The notes below the pieces were generated by a model that made no database searches, was not told the origin of the DNA, and worked only from the letters and a program-made list of their open reading frames with translations. The position numbers and the translations under genes were made by a program. Shown here piece after piece: positions 2,906-11,072 of a stretch of 64,000 bases of DNA (position 1 is the stretch's first letter; every line of letters begins with the position of its first letter). Source of the stretch: Escherichia phage QL01; the sequence record NC_028847.1; one strand, written 5' to 3'.

Positions 2906-2964
2906 TATGTTCTCCTCAAATTATGGGGCTCATAATATCTTAATAATGAGCCCATGTAAACGTT

Positions 2965-3228
2965 TTATTTCATATTATTGAAATAATTTTCTGCATCAAA
3001 ATCACTACCATGGTAAACTTTGGTAGACGATTTGGCGTAACCTTCAGCTGAGAACATATTAATCACAACTTTAATTGTATACCACTGTCCATCTTCATTA
3101 CCCATTACTGCATAGGTTTCATACACCGGGTGTTCAGGACCGATAACCTTAATATCGTTAACTGTGGCACCAAATTCTTCCGGAACACATTTCATAAAGA
3201 AATTAAACACTTCACCATAATTATCCAT
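2965..3228 (-). CDS. hypothetical protein
   Basis: ORF track start is GTG at 3243; ATG at 3228 has GGAGAG RBS; early promoter cassette immediately upstream. Confidence 0.5.
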   Translation of the reverse strand: MDNYGEVFNFFMKCVPEEFGATVNDIKVIGPEHPVYETYAVMGNEDGQWYTIKVVINMFSAEGYAKSSTKVYHGSDFDAENYFNNMK

Positions 3229-3349: not shown

Positions 3350-3904
3350 TCAGTTCTTGTAGAACCGGAATGGGTTTATGTGGAAGGCTAACATAGCCTT
3401 AGGGATTTTACGAGACAAAAGGCTCTTAAGCTTCCAACCACAGTACACGCGAAGGTAAAAGGTAATCCCACCAACCTTAAGATATGGAACTGAAGCAAAT
3501 ACACCCCAGGCGTCGTCATTCCACATCCATAACCACCCGTGATGAGCTTTATCAGGAGAACCGGATTCCACGTCGGGATTACCTCGATAATGGAATTCCG
3601 AGCTACAATCACGACCGAGTTTATGGTAAGCAAAGTTATAAGCTTTATTTCGCCATAGCCAAGCTACTCTCTGAAGATAAACACCACCCGGCATTTTCCT
3701 GATGTTAGCCCAACGTTTAATATGACCTTTATCACCGTCAATTGGATTATCGTATGTCATCATCCAATCAAAGCCGTACGGTAATTTACCTGTCTTTTTA
3801 TTGTGGAAAGGAACCACAAATGGTGCAAGGATAACAGCCAGAACCATAGAGATAAAATCCAGTGGAACCAACAGAACCCAACTCAAATATTTTAAAAGTT
3901 TCAT
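3350..3904 (-). CDS. hypothetical protein with N-terminal hydrophobic segment
   Basis: ORF 3350..4009 trimmed to ATG at 3904 (MKLLKYLSW...), downstream of terminator hairpin. Confidence 0.45.
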   Translation of the reverse strand: MKLLKYLSWVLLVPLDFISMVLAVILAPFVVPFHNKKTGKLPYGFDWMMTYDNPIDGDKGHIKRWANIRKMPGGVYLQRVAWLWRNKAYNFAYHKLGRDCSSEFHYRGNPDVESGSPDKAHHGWLWMWNDDAWGVFASVPYLKVGGITFYLRVYCGWKLKSLLSRKIPKAMLAFHINPFRFYKN

Positions 3905-3920
3905 ATATTTCTCTAAGTTA

Positions 3921-3943
3921 ACCAAAAAGCCCCAGACGGGGCT
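3921..3943 (-). terminator. terminator hairpin after internal-protein gene
   Basis: gccccagacggggc hairpin at 3929-3942 flanked by A/T runs on both sides. Confidence 0.45.
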
Positions 3944-3947
3944 TTCG

Positions 3948-4412
3948 TTATTTGATTTGTTTAGCAGACCAGATACGGTCTTTGATGATTTTCTGAATAT
4001 CTTCAACATACTCTAAGTCGTGAGCATGTGGATTATCTTTGAAGCTATGTGCTCGTGCCAGTTTCTGGCCTTCTGTTTTGATTACTAAAAGCTCTTTAAG
4101 AATTGCTTCATACTTAGAAATAATTCCTTTGGCGATATTTTTTTCTTGAGCGGCTTTAGGGTCCGCTTTTGACGCAGGTGCTTTACCTGTAGCTTTCTGG
4201 AACAATTCACCTGAGGCAGCTAGGCTTTTAAAAACTCGGCTAACAGTATTGGCATTAGTAAAACCTTCGGCTTTAAAATCTTTAATAAAACGGAAACGTT
4301 CTTCATCAGAGGCGTCTTTGTAAGAATATTTACCTGCTTGAATTGCTGCAATCGCAGCGGCTTTTACATCTGAACTAGATTGTTCAGTCAAAAATTCATT
4401 GTAAGTTTTCAT
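3948..4412 (-). CDS. internal protein (IP-like) with capsid-targeting N-terminus
   Basis: starts MKTYNEFLTE, matching the T4 IP capsid-targeting sequence as recalled (MKTYQEFIAE); own late promoter and terminator. Confidence 0.7.
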   Translation of the reverse strand: MKTYNEFLTEQSSSDVKAAAIAAIQAGKYSYKDASDEERFRFIKDFKAEGFTNANTVSRVFKSLAASGELFQKATGKAPASKADPKAAQEKNIAKGIISKYEAILKELLVIKTEGQKLARAHSFKDNPHAHDLEYVEDIQKIIKDRIWSAKQIK

Positions 4413-5460: not shown

Positions 5461-5751
5461 TCATTGTGGCCACATATTAATGTAATCAAGTTTAATAGAA
5501 GCAATCTTCAAAGGATTTTTAAAGATGTCGTATTCGACCAACCCGTTTTCAGTTGCGGTGTAGAAAGTAAAGTTAACAGAATTATAACGGCGACCATTAA
5601 CTTTTAGTTTAACGTCGCTTGAACTACGACCAATATTAACCTGTTGGACATCAAGCACAGCACCTTTGCCAAAGTTGCGAATCAGTAGCTCTGCTGCAAC
5701 CTGGTCTGAATTATAGCCATTCTCTGGATTAGTAACCTTAACGTATAGCAT
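5461..5751 (-). CDS. hypothetical protein
   Basis: 96 aa ORF, start overlaps stop of upstream gene. Confidence 0.5.
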   Translation of the reverse strand: MLYVKVTNPENGYNSDQVAAELLIRNFGKGAVLDVQQVNIGRSSSDVKLKVNGRRYNSVNFTFYTATENGLVEYDIFKNPLKIASIKLDYINMWPQ

Positions 5752-6159
5752 TTAACCCTCGTCTACAATAGTATGGGTATTAGCATTAACAATCTGCCAC
5801 CAGTCACAGTCAAAACGATTAGAACCGTAACGAGGCTTTTTCTCATTTTCGTTAATAATATCACGTAGTTCGTCTTCAGAAAATGCTTTAGCGATTAAAT
5901 CGGTATAGCCGCCACGTGGATAATAGTTATCACCTGCGAACAGAAGGAAATTTACTTTACCAGAAGGAACATATGCTTCCTTAGGATACTTGTTTCCTGC
6001 TTGGTCTACCACTTCAATATAACGGTAAGGAATATCGGTACTTTCAACCCATTGCCAAGCTGCAGCAGGGGATTCAAAAGCATCTACACCTAAACGGTTA
6101 TCTTCATCTTTAGACGGATTATTTTCATAATCCGCATATACATAATATTCAATGTTCAT
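5752..6159 (-). CDS. hypothetical protein
   Basis: 135 aa ORF. Confidence 0.5.
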   Translation of the reverse strand: MNIEYYVYADYENNPSKDEDNRLGVDAFESPAAAWQWVESTDIPYRYIEVVDQAGNKYPKEAYVPSGKVNFLLFAGDNYYPRGGYTDLIAKAFSEDELRDIINENEKKPRYGSNRFDCDWWQIVNANTHTIVDEG

Positions 6160-6344
6160 TATTCACCTTTAGAGATTTTATCCATAACGAAAGAAATTGA
6201 ACCAATTAAGAATGCCACTACTAAAGAGATTATATTCTCGGAAGTTGAAAGCATATCGAGCATGAATCCTGCAAACATACTAAAGCCAAAAGCAGTAACA
6301 GCGGCCAGTGCAGTAACATTTCTAATTAATTCACAACGTTTCAT
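6159..6344 (-). CDS. small membrane protein
   Basis: ORF track start is TTG at 6356; ATG at 6344 with GGAGA RBS; hydrophobic helices; early promoter cassette upstream. Confidence 0.5.
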   Translation of the reverse strand: MKRCELIRNVTALAAVTAFGFSMFAGFMLDMLSTSENIISLVVAFLIGSISFVMDKISKGE

Positions 6345-6412: not shown

Positions 6413-6685
6413 TTATTTTAAATAAATTGCATATTTTTTATAACCAGCCGTCTCGTGGCGCAGCCCTTTTTCATTAGCAAAACGTTCAATATTGTTAATT
6501 TGATTCTGGTCGAGTTCTGAAGTATCAAATACAAAAAAGTTTCGCTTATTGCCTAAAGTTACGTGATTAGTCAAATCGATGTTATAGAGATGATTTATAT
6601 TATCAATCATGGTCTTAACAGATTTGTTAATTTTTACTTCTTCATTAAGAATAGATTCAGCGATAAATTCTTGGTATGATTTCAT
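6413..6685 (-). CDS. internal protein (IP-like) with capsid-targeting N-terminus
   Basis: starts MKSYQEFIAE. Confidence 0.65.
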   Translation of the reverse strand: MKSYQEFIAESILNEEVKINKSVKTMIDNINHLYNIDLTNHVTLGNKRNFFVFDTSELDQNQINNIERFANEKGLRHETAGYKKYAIYLK

Positions 6686-6686
6686 T

Positions 6687-6911
6687 TTATTCAGCGCCAG
6701 CGGCTTTCAAAAGTTTTTTAAGATTGGCTATGCCGCCAGCAGAAAACGTGACCTTGCCACCTTTTTCATTGATAGAGCCAGTCAATTTAGCAAGCTTATC
6801 ACTAGGGACTTTTTTAAAATCAGCCAGTGTGCCATCAAAGGTTTTTGTAACAATTGGCAGTTCATCTTCATGTCTTTTAGCTTCGGTGATAAATTCTTGA
6901 TAAGTTTTCAT
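6687..6911 (-). CDS. internal protein (IP-like) with capsid-targeting N-terminus
   Basis: starts MKTYQEFITE; early promoter cassette upstream. Confidence 0.65.
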   Translation of the reverse strand: MKTYQEFITEAKRHEDELPIVTKTFDGTLADFKKVPSDKLAKLTGSINEKGGKVTFSAGGIANLKKLLKAAGAE

Positions 6912-7689: not shown

Positions 7690-8443
7690 TTTTATTTCCT
7701 AATAATTTATCAATAGTGGTGTATAGTTCAGAAAGAGTGCCGTTATTTTCAACAACAACGTCACCAGGTAAAATTGGTAGACCCGCTTCAGTGATGTGCG
7801 AGTCTTGTACTTGACCGGTTTCAGCGCGAACTACATGAATAATCGTAGCACCCATCGCTCTGAGCGAATCAATTTCGTGTGTTTGACGAACATCAGGTAC
7901 GACATAGTATTTCGCATCAGAGTATATTTTATCAAAATAGTCTAAAGCGAACAACTTAACCCAATACATCTTATCAAATTGGTTAACAATAATATCAGTC
8001 CCAAGGGTCTGCATGAGACGACGTACTGACCAATTGTTATTTTTATTTATTACTTCAAACAGTTGGTCTTTTGTTTCTTCAGACAGATACTGGACTGGGG
8101 TAAGACCATAATGATATGCGGTACGAACATCCATTCCTGGAATAGGAAGGATATTATTCAGTTTGACAATAGCATTTTCAAAGATATCAATCACATCATA
8201 TGGTTTTAAAGGAATGATTTCTTCACGGTCGTAACCGATACCTTCAAAACAGTTAAAATCTAGTTTAGGCATGTAACTACGGTCGAATACAGGGTCATCA
8301 GAGATGTATTCATAGGCTTCAGCCAGATACTTTTTAATAGGACCTGCGAGCTGAAATTTTACCGAATCCATATTTTCGATTACATAGTTAGCAACGGTAT
8401 CCTTACCGCTACGTTTGATTCCTACAATTGATATTAGTTTCAT
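7682..8443 (-). CDS. 1: gp1 deoxynucleoside monophosphate kinase
   Basis: 253 aa with P-loop GIKRSGKDT; T4 order 57A-1-3-2-4. Confidence 0.8.
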
Positions 8444-9033
8444 TATTTTCTCATAGATGGATGCATAGACATACGAGCCACTCGTTGTTCGGCATACGAA
8501 TCAATTTGTGGACGACCTGTAACTATTGTACCATCTATTTCTACAGCAAACGATTTGAAGTTGAATGTTGCTGTGGCGATAATCGCCGGGTCAGAATCCT
8601 CTTTATAAGAGTACTGGATTTCCGAGAGGTCGGATGGCCAACCATCGTAGTAATGAATGCTCATTACGATTTTCTGTTTGTTATTATCAAGGATGTGGAG
8701 GGTGATAGCTTCCGGTTGACCTTTAGGATGCCAGGCTTCTGAATCATGGGTTACATAGTTGTTTAATGACAACATCCACTTATAAACGTCAAGCCACGAT
8801 TTCAATTCACGGTCCACAAGAAAGTTCACAATCAATGGGTCGAATTCTACAGTAGAACCTGGCAGCTTAGCACGATGTATGCCCTGGGTCGATCCTGGGA
8901 CGTCTGAGACCGGAATATGGATACCCGGTAGTGTTACATCTTGTACGTTCAATTTGAATGCCTGTGTCATTCCTGCGTCACTAACCTCTAAGATAAAGTT
9001 AGTAGTGTTAGTTTGGTTAAATAAACCGTTCAT
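8443..9033 (-). CDS. 3: gp3 tail completion / sheath stabiliser
   Basis: 196 aa, synteny between gene 1 and gene 2. Confidence 0.65.
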   Translation of the reverse strand: MNGLFNQTNTTNFILEVSDAGMTQAFKLNVQDVTLPGIHIPVSDVPGSTQGIHRAKLPGSTVEFDPLIVNFLVDRELKSWLDVYKWMLSLNNYVTHDSEAWHPKGQPEAITLHILDNNKQKIVMSIHYYDGWPSDLSEIQYSYKEDSDPAIIATATFNFKSFAVEIDGTIVTGRPQIDSYAEQRVARMSMHPSMRK

Positions 9034-9115
9034 AGGGTTCCTATATTGCTTAAGTCCCAGACAGTGTATAATGGTCCTAGGTCTGTTCCATTCAATAACT
9101 GGCTGGGATAATAGA

Positions 9116-9766
9116 TTATTTTATAAATTCACGTAGTCTTACTGGTGTCATAAAAGGCCATTTGGCTATAGTTGGTTTTATCCAGTATCTTTCGTGGCAT
9201 GTAGCTTTAAATGCCCGAACCATATCCTTGGCCTCTTCTATAGTATCCACACCAAATTGTTCACAAGTTTCCTTTCTGGCTTTATCCCATCTCCGTTTAG
9301 AAAGCTCCGCTTGGAGTTCTTTATTGGCAAAACGGCCATTATTCCTATCATGAGTGGTTCCTTTTGTAGGACTCCATCCTCGTCCCTTTACAAATCCTTC
9401 AGGAATCGGTTCACCCGGAAACAGCTTAATACACTTCTTGCCATTATTATAATAAACCTTTCCTGTTTGGGTTGCTGTGATATTCTCAGAGTGCTTACGT
9501 TTAAGCCAGCCGTAAAGCTTATTAGAACGACGAGGGCCTTGAGTCATTGTCATAGCTGCAAAAGTTAGACCAGGATGTCCTGGATGCATTTTAACTAATA
9601 GTTGATGTGCTAAATAATGTTCTTCAGGAGTTAAATCAACTAAGTTTGTAGATTCATCACCTCCACCCATACATCTAGGTAAAATATGATGAGATTCGGT
9701 ATAACAGGATAGTGCTCGTCCTTGAGCACGTGTAATTAATGAAGAATATATTTTCTGGTAATTCAT
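9116..9766 (-). CDS. HNH homing endonuclease (Mob-like)
   Basis: motif ESHHILPRCMGGGDESTNLVDLTPEEHYLAH; ATG at 9766 overlaps gp2 stop; inserted between genes 2 and 3. Confidence 0.75.
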   Translation of the reverse strand: MNYQKIYSSLITRAQGRALSCYTESHHILPRCMGGGDESTNLVDLTPEEHYLAHQLLVKMHPGHPGLTFAAMTMTQGPRRSNKLYGWLKRKHSENITATQTGKVYYNNGKKCIKLFPGEPIPEGFVKGRGWSPTKGTTHDRNNGRFANKELQAELSKRRWDKARKETCEQFGVDTIEEAKDMVRAFKATCHERYWIKPTIAKWPFMTPVRLREFIK

Positions 9767-10602
9767 TATGCCTTCTTCCAAACTTTCTGAGCTGAATAAC
9801 GCTTACCTTTCGATACAAATTGCTGAAGTGGTAATCCTATTACATTAGCCCAATCAGATGGTTTTATCTCTACTAAAGGTCCCTTAATATTTCCAGGGAT
9901 ATAAGCCTTAATCATCACGTCGGCGCCAGCGAATCCTTTTACCTTACTCCAATCGATTTTTAATTTAGTCGAGTTCGTAATGGTAGGCGTACTCGCGTAT
10001 TGCTTCAGCAATTCTTCCAGAAATTGCTGACGTGCTTTAGGTGGAATATAGTGTAAGTTCAGTCCGTACATTAAATTATGCTTACCTAACCCAAGATAAA
10101 TTATTAAAGGATATTTGTCCCAGTATGGTAGGGTATCCTTATGTTTGGCATCATAGATATAAGCATAAAGCTTACCAGGAGACGGTTTAGATACCTGGTG
10201 TCCACGAATTCCTTTCTTTAATGTTTCTGTAAACCATTTAGCTGATTTATTGTTTACGGCAGCGCCTTCGTTAGCAATCTTATCGCGAATACTCTTTCTA
10301 AAACTATTCACCAAAATTAATTGACGTTCGGCTTTGGTTAATTTATTGCCAGGTTTCTTCTGAAGTTTTTCAACCTGTACAGCAGTTTTAATTCGACTCG
10401 AGTATCGAGACATCGCAGATGTAAAGCTAGAATACTTGATGCCTTTATCTTCAGCGAATTTCTTAGCCGAAACACCTTTAGCCTTAGCGTTGGCATATTC
10501 AACGCCTAAAGTTATCCATTGTTGTTCTGAACGAGTAGGCTTGGAACCTTTTGTAGTTTCAGTAGCCTCGTTGATGTAAGAAAATATACTCATCCTTTCC
10601 AT
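9766..10602 (-). CDS. 2: gp2 DNA end-protector protein
   Basis: 278 aa, synteny and size (T4 gp2 about 274 aa). Confidence 0.7.
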
Positions 10603-11039
10603 CCTAATTTTTTCAGTGAGTTTTCGGTAATCAATCTGAAATTAATTCCCATTTTATCTGCTGTAGCTTTAGCAGCTTTCCATTTATCTTTATTTACACT
10701 CCATGTATAATGTTCGTTGATATATCTCTTTTTAGCAGCTGTAGTCATTTTAGCAGGCGCCGCTGGAGGATGGGTCTCTTTAAAAGGTTTGACTTCGAAA
10801 AAGAATTGTTGACCATTGTCGAACTTCACCCAGAAGTCCATAAAATACCGACGTTTCTTTCCATCAGCGTTACTAAAATATGGAATCACAACCTCTTCCG
10901 AGTTCCACTGGACGACATTAGGATGGTTGTCAAGCCAACGCATAAGCCATGCTTCCCAAGAGGAACGATATTGGATTTTCTTCCAATCACCTTTATATTT
11001 TTGTAAGTTTGTAGGTTTAAATTTCCCTGAGTAGGCCAT
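10590..11039 (-). CDS. 4: gp4 head completion protein
   Basis: 149 aa, synteny and size (T4 gp4 about 150 aa); late promoter upstream. Confidence 0.7.
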
Positions 11040-11049
11040 AGTGCCTCCT

Positions 11050-11057
11050 TATAAATA
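11050..11057 (+). promoter_or_regulatory. late promoter TATAAATA for gp53
   Basis: exact TATAAATA about 28 nt upstream of gp53 ATG. Confidence 0.6.
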
Positions 11058-11064
11058 TTAATAT

Positions 11065-11072
11065 TATTTATA
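11065..11072 (-). promoter_or_regulatory. late promoter TATAAATA for gp4 (divergent)
   Basis: exact TATAAATA on minus strand about 26 nt upstream of gp4 ATG. Confidence 0.6.

Follow-up and report, generated by a model that had tools for sequence, protein, structure and literature searches.

Introduction

It is textbook knowledge that T4-like phages carry free-standing Mob-type HNH homing endonuclease genes (HEGs). The closest characterised system is T4 MobE, a nicking and homing HNH endonuclease encoded by a free-standing gene between nrdA and nrdB (Wilson & Edgell 2009, PMC2790892). The mobE gene is promoterless and co-transcribed with nrdA, and its product nicks one strand of nrdB in the HEG-less phage T2 (PMC2790892). 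Single-strand nicking is documented for the Mob enzymes and for I-HmuI. As for the gene studied here, RB32, one of the phages that carry an orthologue, was counted with two mob-like HNH genes (Petrov et al. 2010), and the type genomes JS98 and JS10 were at first described as devoid of any HEG.

We analysed a stretch of 64,000 nucleotides from Escherichia phage QL01 (NC_028847.1; hereafter the window), a Dhakavirus, i.e., a JS98-like T4-type coliphage. A 650-bp segment of this DNA is very likely a free-standing T4 Mob-type HEG, which would ride on the gp4-gp2-gp3 late message and home into HEG-less relatives. Like T4 mobE, this gene has a homologous N-terminal HNH module, stands free between two conserved genes, has no promoter match of its own and occurs sporadically among close relatives. 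Unlike MobE, which is a 141-a.a. protein with a short tail from the early-middle nrdA/nrdB operon, the protein has 216 a.a. with a C-terminal four-helix domain that has no MobE counterpart, and its site lies in the late structural gp2/gp3 operon. In addition, nicking and homing have been demonstrated for MobE, whereas for the HEG of the window they are predicted. A literature search found no biochemical or genetic work on the lineage occupying the gp2/gp3 site.

Results

An intact HNH gene between genes 2 and 3

The minus strand of the window carries the gene order gp4-gp2-HNH-gp3-gp1-57A-57B, and the coordinates of all features are collected in Table 1. The neighbours had been named as gp2 and gp3 in an earlier, sequence-only reading of this DNA, and both identities were confirmed by matches to PHROG 429 and PHROG 45. 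The HEG lies between the gp2 stop codon and the spacer preceding gp3, leaving both host genes intact and uninterrupted, and is thus free-standing. The same reading had taken T4 to have nothing between genes 2 and 3, in agreement with the T4 record, where the 106-bp spacer between them bears no annotated gene.

According to the open reading frame (ORF) listing and the raw sequence, the HNH ORF is intact and encodes 216 a.a. followed by a TAA stop. The mechanically defined ORF begins at a TTG (9781..9116), and translation from the ATG at 9766, the start common to all orthologues and T4 MobE, yields the 216-a.a. protein (MNYQKIY...REFIK). The HNH motif, SHHILPRCMGGGDESTNLVDLTPEEHYLAH, occupies residues 25-54 with the pattern HH...N...H...H. 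A search of the 64-kb window found no paralogue of the HEG.

Table 1 Features of the gp2/gp3 junction and its surroundings in the window.
Feature	Position	Strand	Basis
Probable free-standing Mob-type HNH homing endonuclease gene	9116..9766	-	ORF/translation; PHROG 655; E33 protein; T4 MobE homology
Predicted N-terminal nuclease module, aa 1-100	9467..9766	-	AF2 model, conservation, recurrence
Predicted beta-beta-alpha-metal core, aa 24-60, with H26, H27, N41, H50, H54	9587-9697	-	AF2 model and alignment
Linker region, aa 101-145	9332..9466	-	AF2 strands, conserved residues
C-terminal domain of four helices, aa 146-216; presumed to bind DNA site-specifically	9119..9331	-	
6-bp hairpin GUGCUC-AAGGAC-GAGCAC, HEG codons 13-18	9712..9729	-	Position of T4 mobE internal terminator
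TAATGA overlap	9763..9768	-	Read from sequence
Last five gp2 codons with HEG-linked substitutions (9771, 9772, 9781)	9769..9781	-	8 HEG+ vs 7 HEG- Dhakavirus alleles
Gene 2 (DNA end protector), upstream	9766..10593 (stretch matching PHROG 429, 9766-10602)	-	PHROG 429 at 7e-81; gp2 in E33, LHE83, JS98
Gene 3 (tail completion/sheath stabilizer), downstream	8443..9033	-	PHROG 45 at 4e-48; gp3 in relatives
Spacer, HEG stop to gp3 start, 82 nt	9034..9115	-	Junction comparison
TATAAATA, perfect match to the T4 late-promoter box, ahead of gp4	11065..11072	-	Pattern search

The protein resembles the nuclease module of the Mob enzymes

The PHROG 655 profile ("homing endonuclease") matched the HEG protein at 7e-56, and a database search gave 1,647 homologues, many of which align only to about aa 1-130. 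Among 79 aligned homologues, N41, E48, E49, H50 and H54 were invariant and H26/H27 were at least 90% conserved. The HNH motif that had been noticed in a protein of roughly 216 a.a. is therefore not a chance occurrence. Its catalytic pattern fits a His-Me finger, with a His (general base) ending strand 1, an Asn between the strands and a His/metal ligand in the helix. T4 MobE was 46% identical over aa 1-101 in BLASTP (E 3e-28), sharing the N-terminus MNYQKIY exactly, T4 MobD was 51% identical over 70 a.a. in tblastn (E 6e-17), and Aeh1 MobE was 36% identical over 110 a.a. By its homology to the nuclease modules of MobA-E, the protein thus appears to be of the T4 Mob type.

The curated domain models behaved differently from what the sequence-only reading had led us to expect, namely HNH_3 and NUMOD domains. 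A Pfam scan of the protein returned nothing at E<=0.1, including HNH (PF01844), HNH_3 (PF13392), HNH_5, PF14279, NUMOD1-4 and the zinc-finger models, and we therefore rejected an I-HmuI-like HNH_3/NUMOD class for it. The sole NCBIfam match, IscB at E 0.059, was not significant. Since T4 MobE, an active enzyme, itself barely passes the Pfam HNH cut-off (21.5 versus 21.4 bits) and the gp2/gp3-site orthologues fall below it, the Pfam miss points to a divergent clade rather than to decay. A phmmer search of PDB sequences with the single protein gave HNH-motif matches, all sub-significant; the HEG family profile reached the HNH motif of McrA at E 0.0037, as well as those of a group II intron maturase and Cas8-HNH. 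No sequence match to the solved HNH homing endonucleases was detectable.

An AlphaFold2 (AF2) model of the protein had a mean pLDDT of 89, rising to 95-98 over aa 1-70. The predicted beta-beta-alpha core consists of strands 24-27 and 42-45 followed by a helix at 47-60 (pLDDT 95-98), and H26/H27, N41, H50 and H54 all sit on it. A Foldseek search of the PDB with this model retrieved HNH domains as its top matches, none of them significant. The motif and the predicted fold together place the protein in the HNH (His-Me finger) superfamily, at a distance from its curated profiles, none of which matched.

A widespread N-terminal module is joined to a site-restricted C-terminal domain

Beyond the nuclease module, the linker contains a conserved beta-hairpin (GKVYYNNG.KCIKL ... 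PEGF.KGR; strands 104-107 and 112-115 in the AF2 model), in which G102, G128 and R129 are nearly invariant among the 79 homologues, and ends in a loop of low confidence (aa 135-145, pLDDT<50). The two ends of the protein were distributed very differently: 1,063 phage records contained the N-terminal module, at 1,698 places in all, whereas the C-terminal half occurred in only 76 phage records, at one place each. Every locus of the C-terminal half that we examined, across several Tevenvirinae genera, was the gp2/gp3 junction. Other proteins with the same N-terminal module bear NUMOD3, HTH or I-TevI-type DNA-binding tails instead; P0039, for example, shares only this module with the HEG protein and carries NUMOD3 at 7e-22.

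The C-terminal domain is presumed to bind DNA site-specifically, and an HNH head joined to a distinct, site-associated C-terminal region is the arrangement that a Mob-type enzyme would be expected to have. An HNH motif with a long DNA-binding region of separate modules behind it ("beads on a string") is also the layout of the I-HmuI/I-TevIII type, whose modules are NUMOD or zinc-finger units and from which the HEG differs in not being intron-encoded and in matching none of the HNH_3, NUMOD1-4 or zinc-finger models.

Filled and empty alleles coexist at the same junction

We surveyed 50 closely related GenBank records by megablast at >=90% identity. The HEG was present in 7 of these Dhakavirus records; about 43 lacked exactly 650 bp, aligning in two pieces with 70% query coverage, which leaves about 86% of the records without the gene, JS98, JS10, WG01 and Bp7 among them. 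In LHE83 the empty junction reads ...GAATTCATAA/TCTATTATCC..., with the gp2 stop joined directly to the same 82-nt spacer, and the filled junction of the window reads ...GAAGGCATAATG...(HEG)...AAATAA/TCTATTATCC.... Filled and empty alleles do not differ in the spacer. This presence/absence polymorphism with a precise empty site is one of the features by which Mob-type genes are recognised.

The gene had been read as a mobile insertion into a conserved essential block, a view that a uniformly filled junction in related genomes would have contradicted. The comparison of gp2-gp3 junctions instead revealed base-precise empty alleles in the large majority of relatives, which supports the reading as a mobile insertion. 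The insertion does not, however, represent a one-off event in this phage, because the same junction is filled in many Tevenvirinae genera. Orthologues occupy it in Dhakavirus, Kanagawavirus, Gaprivervirus, Tequatrovirus and Roskildevirus, and also in Serratia, Acinetobacter and Providencia phages; named examples are RB32, RB33, e11/2 (vB_EcoM_112), VR7/VR25, UPEC07, Kosakonia 305 and Erwinia Cronus. Protein identity to the window copy was 79% in Kosakonia 305, 62-63% in e11/2 and UPEC07, and 52% in Cronus. The orthologues examined share the full-length two-domain architecture, the junction and an overlap with the gp2 stop, and do not differ in kind from the window copy, which is the Dhakavirus allele. 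Scans of IMG/VR recovered 0 contigs with the filled-junction pattern and 1 with the empty one, too few for a survey.

The gene itself is already known: an identical protein (100%) is deposited from phage E33 as a "putative site-specific intron-like DNA endonuclease", and the orthologues in RB32 and many other phages are annotated likewise or as "homing endonuclease".

Carriage is discordant with the phage backbone, and the gene is under purifying selection

We next compared the HEG with its flanks. The HEG-less phages LHE83 and WG01 match the window at 100% identity in gp4, gp1 and the spacer, whereas in the HEG-carrying phages C6, 04086 and SHP1, gp4 is only 89-90% identical and the HEG 98.5-99.2% identical. 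The HEG is thus better conserved than its flanks between distinct phage backbones, and its carriage is discordant with the flank phylogeny. In otherwise near-identical empty genomes, the most divergent segment is the 200 bp of gp2 adjoining the HEG site (90% in WG01). Between genera, HEG orthologues diverge roughly in step with the flanks, which long residence would fit as well as recurrent homing would.

Translation revealed an intact ORF in 12 of 12 copies, comprising eight from Dhakavirus and four orthologues from other genera. The annotations of C6 and SHP1 are truncated, as if the HEG were decaying there; both ORFs proved to be full length, and we rejected decay in favour of annotation artefacts. 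The dN/dS ratio against dhabil and Kosakonia 305 was 0.07-0.10 and was low in both domains. Taken together, the intact copies, low dN/dS, conservation above that of the flanks and discordant carriage point to a working homing element that spreads by recombination.

Substitutions linked to carriage were sought among the 15 Dhakavirus genomes. Position 9781 alone was perfectly associated with the HEG, positions 9771 and 9772 were nearly so, and no HEG-linked change was seen on the gp3 side in the 8 HEG+ and 7 HEG- alleles. Since the only perfect association, at 9781, does not hold in other genera, the substitutions are insufficient to locate the target site, and we rejected this approach.

The gp2 stop codon overlaps the start of the gene

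The gp2 stop TAA (9768-9766) and the HEG ATG (9766-9764) share one nucleotide, as the sequence-only reading had described, so that the sense strand reads GCA-TAATGA-ATT; the TGA following the overlap is a second in-frame stop for gp2. The UAAUGA overlap is the same as that of T4 nrdA/mobE (PMC2988022). Its form differs by genus, being TAATG, ATGA or TTGA in the five genera compared (the window and orthologues of four others). The arrangement suggests that translation of the HEG may be coupled to that of gp2. No RBS-sequestering RNA structure, such as those of I-TevI and Aeh1 mobE, was found at the HEG start codon (z +0.67).

A pattern search of the window gave 19 late-promoter matches where 8 were expected. 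On the minus strand, no late box within one mismatch was found between 8608 and 10690; the closest such match upstream of the HEG, TGTAAATA, lies at 10691-10698, and a perfect box lies upstream of gp4.

Two RNA elements were also considered. A hairpin at HEG codons 13-18 occurs at the same codons in six of six orthologues and in T4 mobE. Its stability is significant in UPEC07, Cronus and T4 mobE (z about -3.3 to -3.6) and marginal in e11/2 (z -1.97). In contrast to that of T4 mobE, the hairpin of the window is weak, has no U tract and stays within the expectation from synonymous recoding (z -0.53), and so do those of dhabil and Kosakonia 305 (z -0.5 to -1.2 across the three). By eye, most of 80 metagenomic Mob-like genes have no obvious hairpin there. 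Its function in the window phage is doubtful, and we do not count it among the functional elements of the HEG. The spacer before gp3 was predicted to fold into a hairpin (-22.2 kcal/mol, z -1.89); it had no Rfam match, and RNAalifold on the gp2/gp3 spacer gave misaligned stems.

Discussion

The HEG is real and probably active. Three other accounts of the locus were weighed against this. One holds that the common ancestor of the Tevenvirinae genera concerned already had the gene between gp2 and gp3, that empty sites are losses, and that its patchiness arose by deletion and ordinary recombination rather than homing. Orthologues at the identical junction in five genera and in Serratia, Acinetobacter and Providencia phages are in line with such an origin, as is the protein identity of the HEG (79%, 63%, 62% and 52%), which roughly tracks that of gp2 (83%, 78%, 69% and 77%). 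Independent deletions are, however, unlikely to have rebuilt a base-exact junction of stop codon and spacer in about 43 records. Moreover, near-identical HEGs on Dhakavirus backbones that are only 89-90% identical in gp4, together with flanks identical to the window in genomes that have no HEG, require recent horizontal movement of the segment, and a gene missing from most relatives yet under strong purifying selection is the pattern of an actively homing HEG. We consider ancestral residence without homing improbable.

The same low dN/dS in both domains (0.07-0.1) could also reflect a domesticated nuclease that is useful to the phage, either by excluding co-infecting relatives or by processing DNA ends with gp2, homing being incidental. 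The overlap with gp2 that is kept in five genera, the location within a late structural operon, the lack of a late-promoter match for the gene itself, and the cost to competitors (marker exclusion) known as a side effect of T4 HEGs (PMC2988022) would suit such a role. Yet the absence of the HEG from most Dhakavirus records and from T4 indicates that neither gp2 function nor virion assembly depends on it, and a locus-restricted tail on a head shuffled with many tails is the architecture of a selfish HEG, leaving domestication with very little probability. Just as remote is the idea of an inactive relic that kept an HNH-like motif and lost DNA cutting, like I-TevIII in T4. The failure of the Pfam HNH models to recognise the protein and the non-significance of all structural matches to its model speak for it, but the first applies nearly as much to active MobE, which clears the cut-off by 0.1 bits, and a relic would hardly retain a full-length ORF in every copy examined, invariant or nearly invariant catalytic-motif residues and a dN/dS well below 1.

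For the Mob-type homing element that we favour, the following course may be proposed. The HEG would ride on a late gp4-gp2-(HEG)-gp3 message initiated from the TATAAATA box that precedes gp4, with gene 2 supplying both transcription and a terminating ribosome. Ribosomes ending at the gp2 UAA could restart at the overlapping AUG of UAAUGA, giving low-level translation. During co-infection with a related HEG-less phage, the enzyme would recognise the uninterrupted region of the gp2 end and spacer and, by analogy with MobE and MobA, nick one strand. Repair would then copy the HEG and a short 3' stretch of gp2 from the HEG+ genome into the recipient.

A further proposal, which we put forward tentatively and regard as rather unlikely, is that the genes at the gp2/gp3 junction form a "site-locked" Mob lineage, whose four-helix domain recognises TCTATTATC and the adjacent structured element of the spacer. 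This unusually conserved sequence opens the spacer and is common to Dhakavirus, Kanagawavirus, Tequatrovirus and Gaprivervirus phages. If the proposal is true, a single HEG family could enter many genera by homing and be maintained there, and the HEG could drive local hypervariability in the last ~200 bp of gene 2. The junction would then be a tractable natural case of long-term co-evolution between an HEG and its target within a late structural operon.

As an HEG the gene is ordinary, and its significance beyond correct annotation is slight. Dhakavirus nevertheless offers near-isogenic filled and empty pairs, such as the window or E33 and LHE83, which about 4 SNPs set apart around the junction. 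Finally, its setting in a late structural operon, unlike that of the nrd-associated mobE, could be used to test whether Mob genes in general are regulated through UAAUGA coupling and the 5' hairpin.

The HNH gene is a precise insertion between gp2 and gp3

The homing endonuclease gene (HEG) lies on the minus strand in the order gp4, gp2, HNH, gp3, gp1, 57A, 57B, and gp53 and gp5 diverge from the gp4 side of this block on the plus strand. The mechanical ORF call began at a TTG (9781..9116), but the ORF listing and raw sequence give an ATG at 9766 instead, and sequence comparison showed this to be the start common to every orthologue and T4 MobE. The resulting 216-aa protein carries, at residues 25-54, the HNH motif quoted in the sequence-only reading, which had also placed the gene correctly between gp2 (PHROG 429, upstream) and gp3 (PHROG 45, downstream). 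Direct reading of the sense strand at the gp2 end (...TGG AAG AAG GCA TAA TGA ATT...) confirmed the proposed overlap, in which the gp2 stop codon (9768-9766) and the HEG ATG (9766-9764) have one nucleotide in common; the TGA after the gp2 TAA is a second in-frame stop for gp2. In agreement with the sequence-only reading, the T4 record has nothing annotated in the 106-bp gene 2/gene 3 spacer. A paralogue search of the window found no other copy of the HEG.

Coordinates of the HEG, its surroundings and related loci (L-numbers, fetched loci of relatives)
Feature	Position	Strand	Remarks
HEG ORF	9766..9116	minus	ATG start, 216 aa, ends ...LREFIK
HEG stop TAA	9118-9116	minus	sequence read
gp2	9766-10602	minus	PHROG 429 'DNA end protector', 7e-81
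gp3	8443-9033	minus	PHROG 45; annotated gp3 in JS98, E33, LHE83
5' hairpin GUGCUC-AAGGAC-GAGCAC	9712-9729	minus	HEG codons 13-18
Gene 2(/HEG)-gene 3 spacer	9034-9115	minus	window
Gene 2(/HEG)-gene 3 spacer	2953-3064		L005 (T4)
Gene 2(/HEG)-gene 3 spacer	4158-4248		L012 (UPEC07)
Gene 2(/HEG)-gene 3 spacer	3544-3632		L004
Late-promoter box TATAAATA	11050-11057	plus	perfect, gp4/gp53 spacer
Late-promoter box TATAAATA	11065-11072	minus	perfect, gp4/gp53 spacer
Same-junction homologue			Kosakonia 305 (Kanagawavirus), fetched locus
Same-junction homologue			UPEC07 (Gaprivervirus), fetched locus
Same-junction homologue			e11/2 (Tequatrovirus), fetched locus
Same-junction homologue			Cronus (Roskildevirus), fetched locus
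N-terminally truncated HEG annotation	3674-4228		L008 (C6)
N-terminally truncated HEG annotation	3674-4105		L010 (SHP1)
Seg-like ORF	5595-6230		L016 (IME540); window equivalent point 11687
Seg-like ORF	5595-6230		L017 (KIT01); window equivalent point 11687

A megablast search of GenBank phages with 8443-10602 found 56 records, the nearest being Dhakavirus (JS98-like Tevenvirinae; E33 99.5%, LQ5 98.9%, ABTNLS3 98.8%). The whole query was covered in seven Dhakavirus records (E33, LQ5, ABTNLS3, C6, 04086, SHP1 and dhabil). The other records at ≥90% identity, about 43 (including LHE83, WG01, MX01, Bp7, IME08, JS98, JS10 and KIT01), aligned in two pieces with 70% query coverage and spanned 1,510-1,513 bp versus 2,160. 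The junctions were read directly (slash, junction): ...GTATGGAAGAATTCATAA/TCTATTATCCCAGCC... in LHE83, which is empty, and ...GTTTGGAAGAAGGCATAATG-(HEG)-TTTATAAAATAA/TCTATTATCCCAGCC... in the window. The filled allele is longer by exactly 650 bp, a segment delimited by the two TAA stops, and both alleles have the same 82-nt spacer before gp3. Since empty-site alleles exist, the earlier interpretation of the gene as an insertion stands.

The product belongs to the T4 Mob class

The Pfam scan of the protein gave no match at E≤0.1, and the HNH_3 and NUMOD domains anticipated earlier were thus absent; the sole NCBIfam match was IscB (E 0.059). PHROG 655 'homing endonuclease' matched at 7e-56, and the closest characterised relative is T4 MobE (46% identity, residues 1-101, E 3e-28), with T4 MobD 51% identical over 70 residues. 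Because MobE itself barely passes the Pfam HNH model (21.5 bits, threshold 21.4) and the orthologues fall slightly under, the Pfam miss is a property of the clade.

N41, E48, E49, H50 and H54 were invariant and H26, H27 and C32 near-invariant in a 79-sequence alignment. In the AlphaFold model (mean pLDDT 89), H26/H27 end strand 24-27, N41 precedes strand 42-45 and H50/H54 lie within helix 47-60, a predicted beta-beta-alpha-metal topology. The top Foldseek ranks were HNH domains (TasH, Cas8-HNH, McrA, IscB, Gme HNH), none significant (E≥0.33), and a family profile matched the HNH motif of McrA (E 0.0037). The activities that define the T4 Mob class of free-standing HNH homing endonucleases are site-specific nicking and nuclease-dependent preferential inheritance; on sequence grounds, we assign the product to this class by its head homology, free-standing position, precise presence/absence polymorphism and distinct site-associated tail, although it does not match the curated Pfam HNH profiles.

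The E33 record already annotates an identical protein, and orthologues are annotated in RB32, RB33, e11/2 and many others; Petrov et al. reported two mob-like HNH genes in RB32 and none in JS98 or JS10. No paper characterising any HEG at the gp2/gp3 junction was found in the searched literature. The sequence-only reading was correct, and the HEG is of an ordinary kind.

The C-terminal half is tied to one site

Whole-protein tblastn matched 1,698 places in 1,063 phage records, most confined to the first ~95-130 residues and at other loci (such as nrdA/nrdB, topoisomerase and helicase genes). Relatives sharing this head have other DNA-binding tails, of NUMOD3, HTH or I-TevI type. The C-terminal half alone matched only 76 records, at one place per record, including RB32, RB33, VR7/VR25 and Serratia, Acinetobacter, Providencia, Citrobacter and Yersinia phages. 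Full-length homologues, among the matches listed and annotated, adjoin the DNA end protector gene. Judged from these matches, the tail keeps to a single locus. The stop/start overlap with gp2 was kept in five of five genera examined, as TAATG (Dhakavirus, Kanagawavirus), ATGA (Tequatrovirus, Roskildevirus) or TTGA (Gaprivervirus).

Expression and RNA features

Pattern searching found 19 perfect T4 late-promoter boxes in the window versus ~8 expected; the back-to-back pair between gp4 and gp53 apparently drives two divergent late operons. No late box, with one mismatch allowed, was found on the minus strand at 8608-10690, and a sigma-70 scan gave nothing above shuffle expectation. With no late-promoter match of its own, the HEG would therefore be transcribed as part of the late gp4-gp2 message. 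Four nucleotides before its start is a purine-rich AAGAAGG, and no RNA structure occluding the start was found (z +0.67). The UAAUGA overlap is the arrangement of T4 nrdA/mobE, read by Edgell, Gibb and Belfort (PMC2988022) as translational coupling that holds the endonuclease at a low level. The mobE gene has no promoter and is transcribed together with nrdA; in T2, which lacks the HEG, its product nicks nrdB strand-specifically (PMC2790892). By analogy, HEG expression would be late, low-level and coupled to gp2, and the enzyme may nick HEG-less alleles close to the end of gp2 or the spacer.

The 5' hairpin coincides in codon position with the internal terminator of T4 mobE, which has been verified by experiment; all orthologues have a hairpin there, with differing stem sequences. 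Under synonymous-codon randomisation, it exceeded chance in T4 mobE (z -3.6), UPEC07 (z -3.5) and Cronus (z -3.3), was marginal in e11/2 (z -2.0), and did not exceed chance in the window (z -0.5), dhabil (z -1.0) or Kosakonia 305 (z -1.2). We claim no function for the window hairpin, given its z score and its lack of a U tract. By eye, 80 metagenomic Mob-like genes mostly had no obvious hairpin at these codons. A simple scan also found a perfect palindrome within the HEG, CCAGGACATCCTGG (9570-9583; codons for HPGHPG), terminator-like on both strands and probably incidental, because its stem is just 5 bp and its T run poor.

Across genera, the spacer before gene 3 is better conserved than the coding DNA on either side. 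It opens with TCTATTATC directly after the stop in Dhakavirus, Kosakonia 305, T4, e11/2 and UPEC07, and has a core, TTGAATGGAAnnGACyTAGrACCATTATA, inside an outer stem that is complementary by eye and genus-specific in sequence (CCAGCCAG/CTGTCTGG, CTGTTG/CAACAG, TCAGTG/CACTGA); Erwinia Cronus has a canonical terminator hairpin instead. The spacer folds at -22.2 kcal/mol (z -1.89), and an Rfam search with it gave no match.

Neighbouring mobile and mosaic segments

The close relatives IME540 and KIT01 have, between gp53 and gp5, a 636-nt ORF for a Seg-like (GIY-YIG) homing endonuclease that the window lacks, and UPEC07 has another HEG upstream of gp4 (L012 1546-2253). The gp53-5-4-2-3 block is apparently a hot spot for genes of this free-standing kind. 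At 6413-6911 on the minus strand, two adjacent small ORFs (90 and 74 aa) both start MK(S/T)YQEFI(A/T)E, which we take to resemble the capsid-targeting N-terminus of T4 internal head proteins. This segment is mosaic, ~46-47% identical to E33 (effectively unrelated) and 99-100% to LHE83, LQ5 and IME540.

The HEG is maintained and has moved between backbones

The ORF is full-length in all eight Dhakavirus HEG copies and all four orthologues of other genera. The truncated versions annotated in C6 and SHP1 are artefacts, the DNA encoding 216 aa in both; product names in the SHP1 GenBank record are displaced by one gene. HEG dN/dS was 0.08 versus dhabil and 0.07 versus Kosakonia 305, and low in both halves (N-terminal 0.04-0.05, C-terminal 0.09-0.10); with the intact ORFs, this supports a functional gene.

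LHE83 and WG01, which lack the HEG, match the window at 100% identity in gp4, gp1 and the spacer. C6, 04086 and SHP1 carry HEGs 98.5-99.2% identical to that of the window, yet share only 89-90% identity with it in gp4 and 95-97% in gp3. By these comparisons, carriage does not track the phage backbone, and the near-identity of HEGs on divergent backbones shows that the segment crossed between them recently.

In otherwise near-identical empty genomes, the most divergent stretch is the 200 bp of gp2 adjoining the insertion (identity to the window: WG01 90.0%, KIT01 89.0%, IME540 95.5%, LHE83 97.5%). Relative to the window, LHE83 has four substitutions in the 60 bp upstream of the junction but none on its downstream side, the pattern expected of a short co-conversion tract or of variation in the target site. 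The only position perfectly linked to carriage (8 HEG-carrying versus 7 HEG-less alleles) is 9781, a synonymous change in a Val codon that precedes the gp2 stop by five codons; the linkage was not found in other genera and is too little to place the target site. Separately, a dense substitution cluster at 9811-9841, in the 3' part of gene 2, forms two haplotypes (WG01, KIT01, Bp7, IME08 versus window, LHE83, IME540) independent of carriage, a local recombination or hypervariable patch beside the insertion site.

Between genera, HEG divergence approximately parallels that of gp2, and the HEG lineage is therefore old at the gp2/gp3 site; within a genus, it is gained and lost as a homing element would be.
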